Translations under genes and position numbers: made by a program
Notes under the pieces: model-generated
What the model was told of the DNA's origin: nothing
Database searches by the model: none
The model's input: only the letters and a program-made list of their open reading frames with translations
Assembly (NCBI GenBank): GCA_044448905.1
Contig: JBIOHJ010000001.1
Location: forward strand, 1 to 61,282
Source: Bacteroidia bacterium
GTDB lineage: Bacteria > Bacteroidota > Bacteroidia > AKYH767-A > OLB10
Length of the DNA stretch: 61,282 bases
Reading direction: 5' to 3'
In this document: positions 3,715 to 61,282 of the stretch, in pieces
Position numbering within the stretch: position 1 is the first letter of the stretch
How the letters are laid out: every line of letters starts with the position of its first letter

Positions 3715-4401
3715 TCACCTCCCCACCACCACACTCACCTCATCGCTGGCAATTCCAACTTCAATATCATCTACCACATAAATACCTATATATTTCCACA
3801 AAGCAATCCTTTTTTCTTCGGGTAATTTATACTTGTCAATAAAAGTGGTTCGGGTTAAGCGCTTTAAAAATTTCATGCCGTTGCCATCATCGCGGTTCAC
3901 ATACAGGTTCATACCATGCGTATTGTATTTGTTATAGCTGATTTCAGGCCTCCCCAAATCGGGCTTAATTTTTAAAACTGCTTTCAGCGCAGCAAAATCC
4001 TTAACGAAATCAGCCCCGATAATACCTAAATCCTCACCTATGGCTTCGGTATAATGAATGCTTCCTTTCATACGCTGCACCATTCCGCTTATTATGCCGA
4101 AAATACCTGAAGGAACTGCTGCTGGCGCAGCCGGCAATGTAAGCACCGGTACATCACTTGCATTGCCTCCTGGCAAACCAAACATCAGCTCTTTCCGGAA
4201 AGCCGTCATGCTTTTGCTGAACGACCGCACCATTTCAATCGTATCCATTGCATGTTTCAGCATAGTATAGTAATCCTTAACTTCTTGGGCTTCGGTTGGC
4301 AAAATCATAAGAACACTTGCATACGTTCCGATTTTATCGCTGAAATTTTTCAGCCATGCGAGGCGCTTCTTATTGCTTTTCGGGAAATAATGTTTACGCA
4401 T
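3715..4401 (-). CDS. hypothetical protein (no signal peptide)
   Basis: 228-aa ORF with ATG start. Convergent with 3005-3706 (stops 8 nt apart). The tandem array lies upstream. Confidence 0.6.
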   Translation of the reverse strand: MRKHYFPKSNKKRLAWLKNFSDKIGTYASVLMILPTEAQEVKDYYTMLKHAMDTIEMVRSFSKSMTAFRKELMFGLPGGNASDVPVLTLPAAPAAVPSGIFGIISGMVQRMKGSIHYTEAIGEDLGIIGADFVKDFAALKAVLKIKPDLGRPEISYNKYNTHGMNLYVNRDDGNGMKFLKRLTRTTFIDKYKLPEEKRIALWKYIGIYVVDDIEVGIASDEVSVVVGR

Positions 4402-4417: not shown

Positions 4418-4510
4418 ATTTACCCCATGAACGTTTAAAGGCATTAATTCATTGTATTTTCTCTTAAAAAAATGTTTTTTCGGGCTTACATCAATTGTTT
4501 TATTGAGCCA

Positions 4511-4770
4511 AGCAGATTTTTCAGTTACCGGATCATTTGCCCCTGTTGCAGGGGCAAGCTTTTCTATGACCGAATCATTTGCCTCTGTTATGGAGGCAAA
4601 CTTTTCTATAGCTGGATCATTTGCCTCTGTCATGGAGGCAAGCTTTTCTATGACTGAATCATTTGCCTCTGCTATCGGGGCAAGCTTTTTAATGACCGGA
4701 TCATTTGCCTCAATGGTAGGGGCAAGCTATCCGATGGTTCCATCATTTGCCTAGATAACAGAGGCAGATT
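4511..4770 (+). repeat. 42-bp tandem repeat, about 6 units, each with an internal hairpin
   Basis: ATCATTTGCC recurs at 4532, 4574, 4616, 4658, 4700 and 4742, an exact 42-nt period. Hairpin TTGCCCCTG-TTG-CAGGGGCAA in unit 1; TTGCCTC...GAGGCAA or GGGGCAA in later units. Confidence 0.95.
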
Positions 4771-56002: not shown

Positions 56003-56833
56003 TTAGCTGCTATTTGACAAAGCATTTTTCTTCACCACCACAGCCGAAACATAAATACTTACTTCATACAAAAGGAACAGGGGAATAGCTACCAGGAGCT
56101 GGCTGGTAATGTCGGGCGATGGAGTAATCAGTGCTGCAACAATTAAGTTAACCACCATGGCATGCCTGCGGTACCTGCGCATGAACTGCGGAGTGATTAA
56201 CCCGATTTTGGAAAGGAAATAAACTACGATGGGTAATTCGAAAACGATGCCCGAAGCAAAGGTGAGGATGGTAACAGTAGAGATGTACGAATCGAGGTTA
56301 ATTTGATTTTTCACTTCGGTGCTTACCTGGTAGCTTCCTAAAAAGTTTATTGACATGGGGCTTATAATAAAATAGCCGAATAAAACCCCCGTAAAAAAAA
56401 GTATTGACGCGAAAAATACAATGCCTGTCGAATAGGATTTTTCTTTTTGTGTTAACGCGGGTTTAATAAACCGCCATAGCTCCCACAATAAATATGGAAA
56501 GCCTAAAACAATGCCGGTTACGATGGCAACCCAAACATGCAGGGAAAACTGCCCCGTCATTGAAATGTTGATTAGCGTAAACGGAACTTCGGTAATGCAT
56601 ATATCAATAGAAAATTTTTCGCTAAGCCAGCACAGGGCCCGATAGGTTGGAAAATGCGGATTGCGGGGCCCGAAAATAACGGTGTCGAAAATGAAACTCT
56701 TATTAATGAATGCAACAATGGCTATGGTAACAACGGCTAATACCGAACGTACCAAATGCCAGCGCAACGCCTCGAGATGATCGAGGAACGACATTTCGGT
56801 ATTGGGATCGGCTTTTTTGAAAAATCGGGACAT
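56003..56833 (-). CDS. tatC: twin-arginine translocase subunit TatC
   Basis: MSFLDHLEALRWHL N-terminal signature, 6 TM helices. ATG at 56833 preferred over the TTG-extended ORF that runs into the heptamer repeats. Confidence 0.9.
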   Translation of the reverse strand: MSRFFKKADPNTEMSFLDHLEALRWHLVRSVLAVVTIAIVAFINKSFIFDTVIFGPRNPHFPTYRALCWLSEKFSIDICITEVPFTLINISMTGQFSLHVWVAIVTGIVLGFPYLLWELWRFIKPALTQKEKSYSTGIVFFASILFFTGVLFGYFIISPMSINFLGSYQVSTEVKNQINLDSYISTVTILTFASGIVFELPIVVYFLSKIGLITPQFMRRYRRHAMVVNLIVAALITPSPDITSQLLVAIPLFLLYEVSIYVSAVVVKKNALSNSS

Positions 56834-56980
56834 AAGTAATAAGTAATGACCAATGAGCAATGAGCAATGAGCAATGAGCAATGACCAATAATCAATGAGC
56901 AATAATCAATGAGCAATGAGCAATGACCAATGAGCAATGAGCAATGAGCAATGTTCAATGTTCAATAGTCAATCTATAAT
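56834..56980. repeat. 21 tandem heptamers (GAGCAAT and variants) abutting the tatC start codon
   Basis: Read directly: AAGTAAT x2, GACCAAT x3, GAGCAAT x10, AATCAAT x2, GTTCAAT x2, AGTCAAT, CTATAAT. No phase breaks. Confidence 0.95.
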
Positions 56981-57150: not shown

Positions 57151-59211
57151 ATGGGTTTCAGAAAATCAAATCAACAGGGCAAACCGGGAGTGAAATTTCT
57201 TTTAAGAATTCGCCAGAGAACTGCAATCAGGTTAGTAACGGCAACTTTAGGCTTTGCGGGATTATTAACCGTTTCAATTTTTGTATCAATCTATTTCGGG
57301 CCCAACAAAAAAGCTTTTGCAACAACTAATGAAACGTTGAGCACGGGTTCGTTTATTATTAATATGGGCATTACTCCTCAAACCTATGCGAACGGAATGA
57401 AGCCGTACGGAATGATTTACGATCTTATCATAAAATATACCGTCCCGATAAAATGGGTTATTGAACCGACTAAAGCTAAAGACGGAACTGATTTTACTTA
57501 CAACGGAACCAATTATAAAGGAGGCCCTTTTATTATACAGGCTGAATTTATTACTTCCACAGTGGCTTCGCGCATCTCGTATTGGCAAACTCAAGGGGTA
57601 CAGGGAGTATATACAACGGATGCCATAACCGTCCCCGTTTATACAACGCTTACGAGCTTTCCGAATCTTATGATTGATTCGTTATCGTCAAATCAAAATA
57701 TTGCTGTTACTTATTTCAATAATGCAGGCATCCCCCCGAGCGCATATGGAATTGGCAAGCCCGCGAGCTTAAACGCATGTCATGATGTGTGGGTAAATCC
57801 TCATGGCGATCCACGATGGGCCGATTACTCTTACCTGTATAATTTCGTTACGGTTCAAAAATCGTATATCTGGCTGCAATGCCATTCGGGAAGTGTTATG
57901 GAAGGCTGTTATAATTACCTTCTGCCAACCCAGCAATTAAATTATTTATCTACTAAAGGGCTAAAGTGCTGGAAAGGCGGGGGCGGTTTCAATTGCGATG
58001 CTTTAATTACCGAATCGCATGCAACGTCATCGACCGCGCCTTATACTTATTATTATCCCTCAGATCCCATCATGCAATTTATGGGTAACATGTCGAACCC
58101 AACGCAGCATGGTTCGGAACAATGGTACCAACCCATGTCGACCGGGGCATGGAGGGGAACTACCAAGAGGCTGGTAACTACCGCTACAGGCGCATCGCCT
58201 AATGAAGGCGTGCTGATGGCTTACGGCCCCGGTTATGGTACTGCCGGAAACGGGCTGGTTATGTACACGGCAGGGCATGATTTGAATTCGGGTGGCGGAA
58301 CAGTTTCGGACTGGGTTGCCGCACAACGTTCGTTTTTGAACTATTGCTGGATTGCCGGGCAGGCAAAGGTGCCATTATTTGTTTCTTACTCCATACCGGT
58401 AACGTTTGTGGGTTTGCGAAGACAAGCGGTTTCGGCAACGGTATCGAGCGGCACACCACCTTATACTTACCTGTGGACTTCGACAATAGGTGGCGAATTT
58501 GTGGATCCAACGGCTGCATCAACCTATTTTATTCCTCCCAATCCTGACCCGGGCCCCATATCGGGAGTGCTGCAATGCATTGTTACGGACGCATGCGGAC
58601 GAAGAAATTTTATTTCTCAATTTATATCAATTACTAACAGCCCATTACCCGTAACCCTCAGCTCGTTTGAAGCTAAAGCGCAAAATAATAAATCGGTATT
58701 GCTTAGCTGGACAACTGTTGCCGAAGTGAACAATGATTATTTTACGATTGAACGTTCGGCTGACGGAAAGCATTTTACAGAGTTGACCCGCGTGGATGGC
58801 GTTGGCAACAGCACGGTTTTGCATAAGTATTCGTACACAGATAATTCGCCTTACAGCGGAAAATCTTTTTACCGCTTAATGCAAACCGATTTTGACGGTA
58901 CATGTGTATTATTTAAAATTGTTCCGGTAACGATTAAAGCAAATGACGAAACCAAAAGCACTGTAACGGTTTCGCCCAACCCGTTTAGTGATGAGTTTAC
59001 AGCTCAGTTTGAATGTTCCGAAAAGGAAGAAGTTACTATTAACCTGATCACGGCTAACGGGATAACAGCTTTTTCGGATAAAATAATTGCCGCTGAAGGA
59101 AATAACCTGTACCGGTTTAACGCGGCAGGTAAAATTCAACCCGGCACTTATCTTTTGAAAATAGGCAACAGCAGTACTGTTTTTGCAACCAAGAAGGTTA
59201 TTTGCCGGTAG
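57151..59211 (+). CDS. large secreted hypothetical protein with T9SS C-terminal domain
   Basis: 686 aa. N-terminal hydrophobic anchor, Ig/fn3-like module (LSWTT...YFTIERSADG...YRL). C-terminal VSPNPFSDEF...GTYLLKI sorting domain. Confidence 0.7.
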   Translation: MGFRKSNQQGKPGVKFLLRIRQRTAIRLVTATLGFAGLLTVSIFVSIYFGPNKKAFATTNETLSTGSFIINMGITPQTYANGMKPYGMIYDLIIKYTVPIKWVIEPTKAKDGTDFTYNGTNYKGGPFIIQAEFITSTVASRISYWQTQGVQGVYTTDAITVPVYTTLTSFPNLMIDSLSSNQNIAVTYFNNAGIPPSAYGIGKPASLNACHDVWVNPHGDPRWADYSYLYNFVTVQKSYIWLQCHSGSVMEGCYNYLLPTQQLNYLSTKGLKCWKGGGGFNCDALITESHATSSTAPYTYYYPSDPIMQFMGNMSNPTQHGSEQWYQPMSTGAWRGTTKRLVTTATGASPNEGVLMAYGPGYGTAGNGLVMYTAGHDLNSGGGTVSDWVAAQRSFLNYCWIAGQAKVPLFVSYSIPVTFVGLRRQAVSATVSSGTPPYTYLWTSTIGGEFVDPTAASTYFIPPNPDPGPISGVLQCIVTDACGRRNFISQFISITNSPLPVTLSSFEAKAQNNKSVLLSWTTVAEVNNDYFTIERSADGKHFTELTRVDGVGNSTVLHKYSYTDNSPYSGKSFYRLMQTDFDGTCVLFKIVPVTIKANDETKSTVTVSPNPFSDEFTAQFECSEKEEVTINLITANGITAFSDKIIAAEGNNLYRFNAAGKIQPGTYLLKIGNSSTVFATKKVICR

Positions 59212-59288
59212 TAGTTATTTCACCTGACGGGGGCTCCCGAAAAAAACGGGACAGGTGCGCGACCCGCCAAGAGAAATGAAAAGTTGAA

Positions 59289-59336
59289 CGCAGAGACGCA
59301 AAGACGCAGAGGAATTATGAATTATGAATTATGAAT
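59289..59336. repeat. short tandem repeats: 8-mer GCAGAGAC-like x3, then heptamer ATTATGA x3
   Basis: CGCAGAGACGCAAAGACGCAGAGG followed by AATTATGAATTATGAATTATGAAT. The 8-mer also occurs inverted at 10553-10572. Confidence 0.9.
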
Positions 59337-59435: not shown

Positions 59436-60383
59436 TTACACTTCTTCGCCATCATTTTCTTCTTCGGCACCTCCGCCAGCCGGGGCTCCTTCTTTTAACA
59501 TGGCAATGGTAAGCTTGGTAGTTTCACCGCTTATGACATTAAAATTTTGCATTGCCGGCTGGTAACCCGGCAGGTTTGTGGTAAGCGAGTGCGCGCCTTC
59601 GGTAAGATTTTGTACAAAGCTGTTGCCCAGCCCGGAGCTGCGCCTGTTAATGCTGCCGTCAACTTTAATTTTTATATGCGCAACGGGCTTGCCGGTTGTT
59701 TGGTCAACAAATTTTGCCTGCAGCGCGCGTTTCTGGGTGGGGCTGTTAACAATAACGCGCGCGTTAAAATATTGCGTATAAAAATCGGGGTTGGTGATGC
59801 GAAACAGCTCCATGCCGCCATCAATTTGTTCCTCGAGAAGCGTAGTGGTTTGGTCAAACAGGGGTCGAAGCTGCTCGGTGGCTGCGCTGGTTTCGCTCAC
59901 TGCTGCGCGCGGCTTGCCAATGTATGCTGCATAATCAGTAATGGCTGTACCCAATGCCGTAGTCATGGGTCCCGTTAACCCGAAAGGCAAAACCGCAACT
60001 GCATTGGCAACAGCCGCTTCATGAACCTGTACAGCCATGCCCGATAATTCGTTATCGCGCGCCTTTGTAAGTTCGGTGCGTGTAAAATTTACTATTTGAA
60101 GCAGCTCGCGGTTGTTAACCTGTGAAGCATAAAATCCAATAATTTTTGCTGCGGCAAAAGTTTGCTCTTCCAAACTCTGTCTTTTATTTTGCTTATCCTC
60201 TGCAACACCTGTTTTGTCTGCGTCCTGTATGTCACGCAGGTCTGCAATGGCATCTATATTTGTTTCAAAGGTGTTAACGGCTGCAGTAAACGGTACATTG
60301 GCTGTCCATACAGCATTGTGAGTTTGCAACACATCATCGGTTGCCTGGTACATGTTAAGGATGTCTTCCTGGGTTTTGTTCAT
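59436..60383 (-). CDS. hypothetical protein: helical N-terminal region plus C-terminal carboxypeptidase-regulatory-like beta-sandwich and acidic tail
   Basis: 315 aa, no signal peptide. C-terminal HIKIKVDG...LTEGAHSLTTNLPGYQP...ISGETTKLTIAM resembles CarboxypepD_reg folds. Confidence 0.6.
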   Translation of the reverse strand: MNKTQEDILNMYQATDDVLQTHNAVWTANVPFTAAVNTFETNIDAIADLRDIQDADKTGVAEDKQNKRQSLEEQTFAAAKIIGFYASQVNNRELLQIVNFTRTELTKARDNELSGMAVQVHEAAVANAVAVLPFGLTGPMTTALGTAITDYAAYIGKPRAAVSETSAATEQLRPLFDQTTTLLEEQIDGGMELFRITNPDFYTQYFNARVIVNSPTQKRALQAKFVDQTTGKPVAHIKIKVDGSINRRSSGLGNSFVQNLTEGAHSLTTNLPGYQPAMQNFNVISGETTKLTIAMLKEGAPAGGGAEEENDGEEV

Positions 60384-60445
60384 GATAGTTTAATTTTTAA
60401 GGTTTGAAATATATTTTATTGAAATTGATTTAACAGATGAATGAA

Positions 60446-60690
60446 TTGCTTAACCCGATGATGCGATTGCTTAACCCGATGATGCGATTGCTTAACCCGA
60501 TGACGCGATTGCTTAACCCGATGATACGATTGCTTAACCCGATGTCGCGATTGCTTAACCCGATGACGCGATTGCTTAACCCGATGACGCGATTGCTTAA
60601 CCCGATGACGCGATTGCTTAACCCGATGATGCGATTGCTTAACCCGATGACGCGATTGCTTTAACCGATGACATCATTGCTTAAAATCAA
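60446..60690 (+). repeat. 21-bp tandem repeat TTGCTTAACCCGATGNNNCGA, 10 near-perfect plus 2 degenerate units
   Basis: Unit starts run from 60446 to 60677 in exact steps of 21. Among the 10 good units only positions 16-18 vary (ATG x3, ACG x5, ATA, TCG). Enclosed by ATG-ORF 60437-60664 (LLNPMxR x10). Confidence 0.95.
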
Positions 60691-60784
60691 CAGCCCCATC
60701 CATTTCATCAAAGAACAGGCAGCAAATATAAATTGACAGTAAGGGCAGAAAAGGGCAAAAAGTAACCCAAATGAAAAAGCCGGG

Positions 60785-61030
60785 TTATTTATTTTTAATG
60801 CCTAAACATACCCGCTTTATTTTTTTAATCCCGCTATGGCTGTAACCCGACTGCGAATTAATGTCTTTGTATTTTAAATTCTCACCAATTCCTTTTTCGG
60901 CTTGCTGCAAATTGTGCTCATGCAAAAGCGAACTCCAGGTAAAACGCTCATCACCATAATAGAATTCAAATTCGCGCACCGTTTCAATGGGAACATGCTG
61001 TAAAATGTGGTTTAGCTTATGACGGTTCAT
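60785..61030 (-). CDS. small hypothetical protein
   Basis: ORF 60785-61093. Internal ATG at 61030 (MNRHKLNHIL...) preferred. No recognisable motif. Confidence 0.3.
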   Translation of the reverse strand: MNRHKLNHILQHVPIETVREFEFYYGDERFTWSSLLHEHNLQQAEKGIGENLKYKDINSQSGYSHSGIKKIKRVCLGIKNK

Positions 61031-61131
61031 GACTCCAACCAAAACAGTATGTAAATATAAAAAAAAGTGAAAAGGAAAAAGTTCGCCTGACAAAATAGGA
61101 TTATAAGGAGGTTGCTTAAACTAAAGGTTGA

Positions 61132-61219
61132 AGGTAGGGAATTCCGCACATGCAGGTAGGGATAATTTTTTTAATGTGAGAAAAATGAATACTTTAGCTT
61201 TTTATTAGGTAGGGATAAT
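61132..61219 (+). repeat. three direct copies of AGGTAGGGA(T/A)AAT
   Basis: Copies at 61132, 61154 and 61207. The last two are identical 13-mers. Confidence 0.7.
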
Positions 61220-61282
61220 ATAATGTTATGCGCCATTCGTGGCTACACAGCGACTTCAAACGGAGTTGCAAGGAAGAAGAAC

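Follow-up and report, generated by a model that had tools for sequence, protein, structure and literature searches.

Tandem arrays with a 21-nt period are paired with orphan genes of six protein families and recur across Bacteroidia

We analyzed a 61,282-nt stretch of DNA from a Bacteroidia bacterium (GenBank assembly GCA_044448905.1, contig JBIOHJ010000001.1, positions 1 to 61,282; hereafter, the window), in which two minus-strand genes each have a tandem-repeat array directly upstream, one with a period of 21 nt and the other with a period of 42 nt. An initial annotation of this DNA had proposed that the layout represents a recurrent functional module rather than two accidental variable-number tandem repeats (VNTRs). 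This proposal is borne out by the genome-wide and cross-genome counts presented below; in the home genome alone, the pairing of array and gene occurs about 30 times. The results show that the arrays are non-coding cis elements, each attached to the gene that directly follows it, and that array and orphan gene together form a heritable module, copied into at least six protein families and conserved across many Bacteroidia. A literature search found no published description of 21-nt arrays tied to these genes; the pairing is apparently a gene-attached control element new to the literature.

The first of the two genes, A315 (59436-60383, minus strand), has an ATG start and encodes 315 amino acids. 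Its array, at 60445-60684, comprises 11.4 copies of a 21-nt unit that reads GCAATCGCGTCATCGGGTTAA in the orientation of the gene (92% matches and zero indels in Tandem Repeats Finder, TRF), with variation among copies confined to two or three neighboring positions. The second gene, B228 (3715-4401, minus strand), also starts with ATG and encodes 228 amino acids; upstream, at 4518-4766, lie approximately five to six 42-nt units, each of 2 x 21 nt (81% matches), which TRF scored at periods of 84 and 126 as well. Both genes and both repeat open reading frames (ORFs) are as initially annotated, and the spacers of 53 nt (A315) and 50 nt (B228) are right when measured to the starts of those ORFs, which run through the arrays on the plus strand at 60437-60664 (75 amino acids, ATG start, of the form MNE(LLNPMxR)n) and at 4452-4754 (100 amino acids, TTG start). 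The frame analysis described below identifies both as chance ORFs. Measured from the first repeat unit, the distance to the start codon is 61 nt for A315 and 116 nt for B228.

The whole home assembly (3.19 Mb in 225 contigs, 38.7% G+C, 89% complete) was searched with TRF at a score of at least 80. This produced 115 arrays, 61 of which have a period of 21 (49 arrays), 42 (11 arrays), or 63 nt (one array). Periods close to 21 are rare, with 22 nt found in two arrays and 19 and 23 nt in one each, and the remaining arrays include two common classes, 180-nt coding repeats (15) and heptamers (5). The 61 arrays hold 3-21.5 units (median 9.9) with 61-98% matches (median 75%), and all but three of them (58) are intergenic, overlapping no ORF of at least 200 amino acids. 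By clustering the genes that flank arrays, we found four families, designated cl7, cl14, D, and H, in addition to families A and B of the window genes; together the six comprise 43 genes (11 in A, 9 in B, 9 in cl7, 4 in cl14, 9 in D, and 1 in H). An array with one of these three periods (21, 42, or 63 nt) lies within 450 nt upstream of 31 of the 43 family genes, as compared to 32 of 2463 others (odds ratio 196, p = 5e-44). This pooled p-value is inflated, as it was their position next to arrays that drew attention to the four extra families, whereas A and B were fixed beforehand; in these two, 8 of 11 and 6 of 9 genes, respectively, have an array within 450 nt on the 5' side. Downstream arrays show no significant excess (1 of 43 family genes versus 35 of 2463 others), nor are arrays enriched at contig ends of the home genome (3 observed versus 2.6 expected). 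The initial annotation had held that many similar arrays unrelated to neighboring gene families would speak against a module: the many arrays do exist, but 32 of the 61 lie directly 5' of the six families, all of the same architecture.

The pairing extends to other genomes. Among 301 genomes of the class, 34 have family A and 26 have family B, mostly as multiple copies, and the two are found together in 16 genomes as compared to 2.9 expected, a comparison in which related genomes are not independent. Arrays within 900 nt were counted at those fetched homologous loci that had enough flank. An array with a period of 21, 42, 63, or 84 nt lies upstream of 16 of 25 family A homologues and downstream of 2 of 27 (p = 2e-5); for family B, the corresponding counts are 11 of 16 and 0 of 20 (p = 7e-6). 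Thus, the enrichment of upstream arrays among homologues, which the initial annotation had named as the way to check its proposal, was found for both families. All five related family A loci have a 21- or 42-nt array within 500 nt upstream, and two complete genomes carry arrays before family B genes, of 24.5 (G438) and 12.9 (G362) copies of a 21-nt unit; array copies in other genomes reach 28. G438 has a further array, of another kind (42 nt x 3.1, L104:3156-3284), 200 nt distal of the 24.5-copy array. The best family A matches in genus g11 (L016, L017, L018, and L022) have no upstream array; their frames are open for 410-430 codons, and they may have an N-terminal extension in place of the array. 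At L045, L048, L049, L054, L056, L058, and L078, the contigs begin 20-170 nt upstream of the A or B homologue, some of them inside a 21-nt unit, which suggests that the arrays break short-read assemblies.

Parts of the arrays are conserved between species. In the A subfamily, the core GTCAGR..AGT, oriented in the sense direction, is kept in unrelated metagenomes and genomes (L046, L047, L010, L009, L045, and L049), while the rest of the unit drifts. In the congeneric species pair G054/G003, the family B orthologues have a 42-nt unit in common, present in 5.6 and 4.6 copies, and the array core plus approximately 60 nt of distal flank is about 90% conserved, as compared to about 85% for the coding sequence.

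The initial annotation had described A315 and B228 as lacking signal peptides, catalytic motifs, and similarity to one another, all of which holds: neither has a signal peptide or matches a catalytic family, and homology between the two is not detectable (BLASTP E 0.17; hhalign probability 1.2%). It had also suggested a comparison of predicted structures, which revealed a shared architecture of helical N-domain and beta-sandwich C-domain. A315 (AlphaFold model, pLDDT 89) consists of an orphan helical domain (residues 1-208), a C-terminal beta-sandwich of the transthyretin/CarboxypepD_reg type (219-295), and an acidic tail, and B228 (predicted model, pLDDT 88) consists of N-terminal helices (10-125) and an FN3-like C-terminal beta-sandwich (144-227). 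The sole family match for A315 is weak and C-terminal (Pfam PF13620, CarboxypepD_reg); Foldseek returned matches to the C-domain only with A315 and to the FN3 domain only with B228. Membership in known protein families was rejected: the generic beta-sandwich at the C-terminus was the only part matched in searches of Pfam, PHROGs, NCBIfam, PADLOC, and PDB by sequence and of PDB and BFVD by fold. All six families follow this one build, with no signal peptide, an orphan helical N-domain, and a beta-sandwich C-domain, for which B, cl7, and cl14 have the FN3-like type and A, D, and H the transthyretin/CarboxypepD_reg-like type; the proteins are cytoplasmic. Homology among the six N-domains is not detectable, the best hhalign probability being 26%, and homology of A with B or among the other families was rejected on these values. 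The helical domain of A315 has no Pfam model and is found in 3306 representative clusters (50% identity) at E <= 1e-3, whose proteins are either about 300 amino acids long or about 225 amino acids long with the domain alone.

Genes encoding proteins with the tail of the type IX secretion system (T9SS) are frequent next to the array-linked genes, being immediate neighbors of 20 of 37 family genes versus 197 of 1854 others (odds ratio 9.9). These neighbors, the commonest of array-linked genes, belong to a single-linkage cluster of 218 proteins (about 8% of ORF calls) linked through T9SS C-terminal sorting domains and domains of the CarboxypepD_reg type; many of these proteins are about 540 amino acids long and contain 180-nt (60-amino acid) repeats.

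The open plus-strand frame through both window arrays had been offered as evidence for the module, which it is not. Perfect repeats of the consensus units have 3.93 of six frames open, as compared to 3.78 of six for shuffled units, so openness is at chance level; three-base periodicity of unit variation was seen in 0 of 47 arrays, 13 arrays have no fully open frame, and the longest array ORFs face toward or away from the gene about equally. At least one frame is open over at least 90% of the length in 54 of 61 arrays, and fully open frames number 2.16 as compared to 1.78 under a naive substitution model, but this small excess is expected because shared higher-order variants are not the independent events that the model assumes. 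We conclude that the arrays are non-coding. With frames at chance level and no coding signature, the "divergent" orientation assigned to the repeat loci loses its basis, and the observation that their periods are multiples of three adds nothing, as it simply follows from 21.

Within the units, variation is clustered, such that an invariant core of 6-12 nt stands beside a variable block. Palindromes or hairpins of at least 5 bp occur in about a third of the arrays, and stems of at least 6 bp in about 17%, versus an estimated 5% or so for random units. Changes within stems are mostly disruptive (186 single disruptive changes versus 16 compensatory Watson-Crick and 5 G-U changes), and enrichment of compensatory changes is mild, at 16 Watson-Crick among 30 double changes versus 10 expected. 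We folded 147 nt of each of 20 arrays and of the A315 array in both orientations. Some arrays, mostly of cl7 and cl14, are strongly structured on both strands and the rest, including most of A, B, and D, are unstructured on both; folding z-scores of these 21 arrays have no consistent strand preference. RNA hairpins were accordingly rejected as a common feature: stems are present in only about a third of arrays, disruptive changes far outnumber compensatory ones, and neither strand is favored. Three other candidate properties were also rejected. Two phased A-tracts per unit would give a 10.5-nt sub-period, which is not seen; descent from heptamer triplets would leave 7-nt self-similarity, which is absent at shift 7 (z -1.7; there is a weak 7-nt harmonic only); and freedom from indels is no special property, being found in 47 of 61 arrays and in 15 of 20 rows of other periods.

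Unit sequences differ from locus to locus, and paralogues that are 70-73% identical carry different units. In the home genome there are 11 clusters of arrays with a common unit type (67-94% identity). None of the 11 contains two family-linked arrays; in nine, a single family-linked array is joined by one or two orphans (permutation P 0.0045 and 0.026). The orphan arrays of these clusters adjoin housekeeping or T9SS cargo genes, and similarity within clusters ends at the array edges, except in one recent duplicate between C1 and C49. That exception concerns A315, whose unit type recurs in a single other array of 20.9 copies (C49:1141-1578). The A315 array and about 230 nt of its distal flank are duplicated there (C49 647-1578 versus window 60445-61229, 94% identity), including the promoter-like box at 60723-60730 discussed below and part of a small ORF (60785-61093); the copy has no family A gene, and a TonB-dependent-receptor-like gene ends there instead. 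Copy number thus differs between the C1 and C49 duplicates (11.4 versus 20.9), as it does between the G054/G003 orthologues.

The mechanism that we prefer, with a probability of roughly 40%, is that of a phased docking array through which the downstream gene is controlled and every paralogue has an address private to it. The array would act as double-stranded DNA, forming a phased, multi-site docking platform: 21 bp corresponds to two turns of B-DNA and each unit has one short conserved core, so the cores would all lie on one face of the helix. A binder that recognizes the sequence, either the product of the gene itself or a co-evolving partner, might oligomerize along the cores and set transcription of the gene behind the array. 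Whole-unit gain or loss would then change the dose while keeping the helical phase, and where an orphan array repeats the unit type elsewhere, frequently next to a T9SS cargo gene, that locus could come under the same control. Several observations support a DNA platform, namely an exact period common to unrelated proteins, many symmetric palindromes, the lack of a strand-specific RNA fold, and units built of core plus spacer. A single period in families with non-homologous N-domains would be explained by a constraint common to all of them, such as the helical repeat of DNA, and private units for each paralogue would allow some 30 modules to operate in one cell without cross-talk.

Other results weigh against a DNA platform. 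No DNA-binding domain is recognizable in any of the families by Pfam, NCBIfam, PHROGs, and PDB profile searches, and the proteins of family D and of the A315 subfamily have a strongly acidic pI of 4.5-5; the lack of a recognizable DNA- or RNA-binding fold together with this acidity counts against direct binding by the encoded proteins. No 10.5-nt sub-period was found within the units, and 29 of the 61 arrays have no family gene beside them. Relative to the gene, the two strands of the arrays differ in composition, with a sense-strand purine fraction of 0.554 (p = 5e-4) and more A than T. Finally, a transcribed leader would account at least equally well for two features: a subset of loci has a canonical promoter box distal of the array and pointing through it, and conservation of the array-to-ATG spacer is poor in the G054/G003 alignment.

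These last points lead to the main rival, which we consider possible but somewhat unlikely: that a distal promoter transcribes array and gene as one mRNA, in which the 21-nt repeats act as RNA to control stability or translation. The RNA could be a multi-site protein platform, possibly for the encoded protein in the manner of type III toxin-antitoxin (TA) loci, or could pair with the transcript of an orphan array. At A315, a box of the Bacteroidetes type, TATATTTG (60723-60730, minus strand), followed by CTGCCTGTTCTTT, lies 45 nt distal of the array and faces both array and gene; it is only a candidate for the promoter of a repeat-containing leader. Homologous boxes followed by (C)AGTTCTTT stand distal of the arrays of two paralogues (C13_8340 and C13_29334) and at L046, L009, and L051, and A315, its paralogues, and several orthologues have the combination of box and (C)AGTTYTT at 45-100 nt on the distal side of the array. 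Across loci, TAnnTTTG within 150 nt distal of arrays occurs in the sense direction at 11 loci versus 7 antisense (5.5 expected), AGTTYTT at 11 loci versus 2, and the composite TAnnTTTG-N2-9-AGTT, a pattern chosen post hoc, at 4 loci sense (6 when relaxed) versus 0 antisense and 0.2-0.6 expected. However, plain TAnnTTTG boxes do not locate a promoter, as their overall density in both flanks is near background, and only the post hoc composite is strand-specific. A leader is further favored by the purine- and A-rich sense strand, by the conservation of distal flank and array, but not of the proximal spacer, in G054/G003, by the orientation of units relative to the gene, which is kept among orthologues, and by 5 of 11 orphan loci at which an antisense array just past a convergent gene would give complementary RNAs. 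Yet a leader gives no reason for a single exact period across unrelated proteins. Most arrays are unstructured and none has a strand-specific fold, G-U versus A-C mismatches in stems have no clear strand bias, ATG is not avoided on the sense strand, no terminator separates array and gene, and the proteins have no nuclease or RNA-binding fold.

Under a more far-reaching reading, which we regard as unlikely, the arrays would constitute a private address code: about 30 cytoplasmic paralogues from at least six families would each have their own 21-nt word, repeated at a distant orphan locus that is often beside a T9SS cargo gene, and a word-specific reader, either protein or RNA, would wire each protein one-to-one to its target locus.

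There are two further explanations, and we give little credence to either. The first is that the arrays are contingency VNTRs, in which gain and loss of units by slippage or recombination varies the expression of the adjacent gene or of the T9SS surface-protein gene next to it within a population, with the period of 21 kept only for promoter geometry. The differing copy numbers of duplicates and orthologues, the 42/63/84 higher-order structure typical of unequal exchange, and the excess of T9SS cargo neighbors all agree with this explanation, but long units with diverged copies (median 75% matches) slip poorly, and both the conserved cores and the private unit types common to orphan loci are left unexplained. 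A metagenome scan for the array unit gave no matches. The second, of similarly low probability, is a neutral or selfish satellite, in which a genome-wide process makes arrays of 21-nt period that accumulate in permissive intergenic DNA around recently expanded, horizontally mobile families. Such a process would account for the arrays that are not beside a family gene, for the duplication of an array without its gene at C49, for the unexceptional freedom from indels, and for the patchy, multi-copy occurrence of A and B, as expected of mobile gene pools. It does not predict that the excess should be strictly 5'-sided (31 of 43 upstream versus 1 of 43 downstream), that the pairing should persist across genera and in at least six families, that array cores should be conserved between species above their flanks, or that no unit type should be common to two family genes. 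Least credible of all is that the arrays encode small proteins or peptides of 7-amino acid heptad repeats, such as MNE(LLNPMxR)10, divergent from the neighboring gene, a reading that the complete plus-strand ORFs of both window arrays, the widespread open frames, and the signal-peptide-like opening of ORF 4452 might suggest but that is rejected by the shuffled-unit frame counts, the absent codon-phase signal, and the inconsistent ORF orientation.

To our knowledge, gene-proximal tandem arrays that are private to their locus are known from few systems (type III antitoxins, iterons, and operator heptads), in all of which the repeat proved to be the key to the way the system works. The arrays described here resemble type III TA loci in that short, non-coding tandem repeats lie directly upstream of a single protein gene, are locus-specific, and occur at many paralogous loci with private repeats. 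In the ToxIN, CptIN, and TenpIN systems, the repeats are 31-62 nt long and present in 1.9-5.6 copies, a short palindromic terminator precedes the toxin gene, and the toxin is a protein of about 150-170 amino acids with a ToxN/AbiQ-type endoribonuclease fold (PMC3401426). In contrast, the arrays here contain 3-28 copies of units of 21 or 42 nt, repeats and gene are not separated by a terminator, and the proteins have 200-330 amino acids, helical plus beta-sandwich folds, and no match in PADLOC. Membership in type III TA systems was rejected on this basis: the upstream repeats agree, whereas the terminator, the length and copy number of the repeats, and the toxin fold do not.

Iterons next to rep genes, the heptads bound by omega of pSM19035, and the ParR-parC system all use direct sites of about 7-22 bp that are helix-phased, private, autoregulatory, and upstream of the gene for their binder; the binding proteins are winged-helix Rep or ribbon-helix-helix proteins, with one array per replicon. 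The arrays studied here are similar to iterons, which are direct repeats of 17-22 bp, in having direct repeats with a spacing of about two helical turns beside a gene. They differ in that the proteins have no match to Rep in Pfam, NCBIfam, or PDB and have other folds, and in that 61 arrays occur in one 3.19-Mb genome; unlike omega and ParR, the proteins have no ribbon-helix-helix or helix-turn-helix domain in Pfam, NCBIfam, PHROGs, or PDB profiles, and several families are acidic. Promoter-proximal VNTR loci, such as the 7-bp repeats before the hmw adhesin genes of Haemophilus influenzae, consist of identical units of 1-7 bp. Like them, the arrays here precede genes that have a link to surface proteins and vary in copy number, but their 21-nt units are often only 65-80% alike, the period is fixed across unrelated sequences, and the arrays are paired with particular families. 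Dispersed heptamer repeats have been described in cyanobacteria, Beggiatoaceae, and Bacteroidetes (PMC4679880). They are intergenic and found in the same genomes, and heptamer arrays also flank window genes (59312-59336 and 56845-56953); however, the arrays considered here have a period of 21 rather than 7.

The remaining observations concern the immediate surroundings of the arrays. The 61-nt spacer between the A315 array and its start codon (60384-60444, minus strand) is A/T-rich and contains a near-consensus TAnnTTTC box at 60413-60406 plus a TTTCAATAA motif; no terminator-like site was found in it. The B228 array unit is an inverted repeat, TTGCCYC-N7-GRGGCAA, with one compensatory pair type, and on the plus strand its units resemble intrinsic terminators. 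In all, six terminator-like sites were found versus 1.4 expected, four of them being repeat units; these four are successive 42-nt units (4536-4684, plus strand) with stems of 8-10 pairs followed by CTTTTCTAT. In two units, a T-G stem pair on the plus strand would be a C-A mismatch on the minus strand. Apart from the repeat units themselves, which are on the strand opposite to the gene, the B228 locus has no terminator-like hairpins. Rfam covariance models gave a tRNA as the sole match at gathering score in the window and chance-level matches only around the array. In the 120 nt upstream of genes, the k-mers AAACAAT/AACAATTAA occur at 20 of 89 family genes versus 96 of 2104 others (G000 and loci L009-L079), and TCAATA is enriched before family genes, clustering at -28 to -39 from the ATG. 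The occurrence of these leader k-mers in families with unrelated proteins hints at shared promoter or translation signals.

Heptamer repeats, a class distinct from the 21-nt arrays, are also present near A315. An array of AATGAGC x 15.6 (56845-56953) lies about 200 nt upstream of a T9SS-tail gene (57151-59211); it also overlaps the region in which a minus-strand ORF (56003-56902) starts. Directly past the A315 stop codon, at 59288-59336, there are short heptamer and octamer runs (GAATTAT x 3.6 and ACGCAGAG x 3), and in two other genomes A315 homologues likewise have GAATTAT-type runs past the stop codon (L009:3903-3934 and L032:2411-2445).

These findings tie one exact 21-nt period to several large, unannotated protein families that cluster with T9SS cargo genes. 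On the practical side, the arrays are easily miscalled as small ORFs and may interrupt assemblies built from short reads. If the arrays are docking sites, they would offer an experimental handle on otherwise intractable proteins, through pull-down with the repeats and variation of their copy number. If family-linked and orphan arrays share words for a functional reason, this would represent a new way to address many paralogous loci individually, and, should the address code prove true, a new and expandable system for the individual control of a huge secreted repertoire, the 218 T9SS-tail proteins of this organism.

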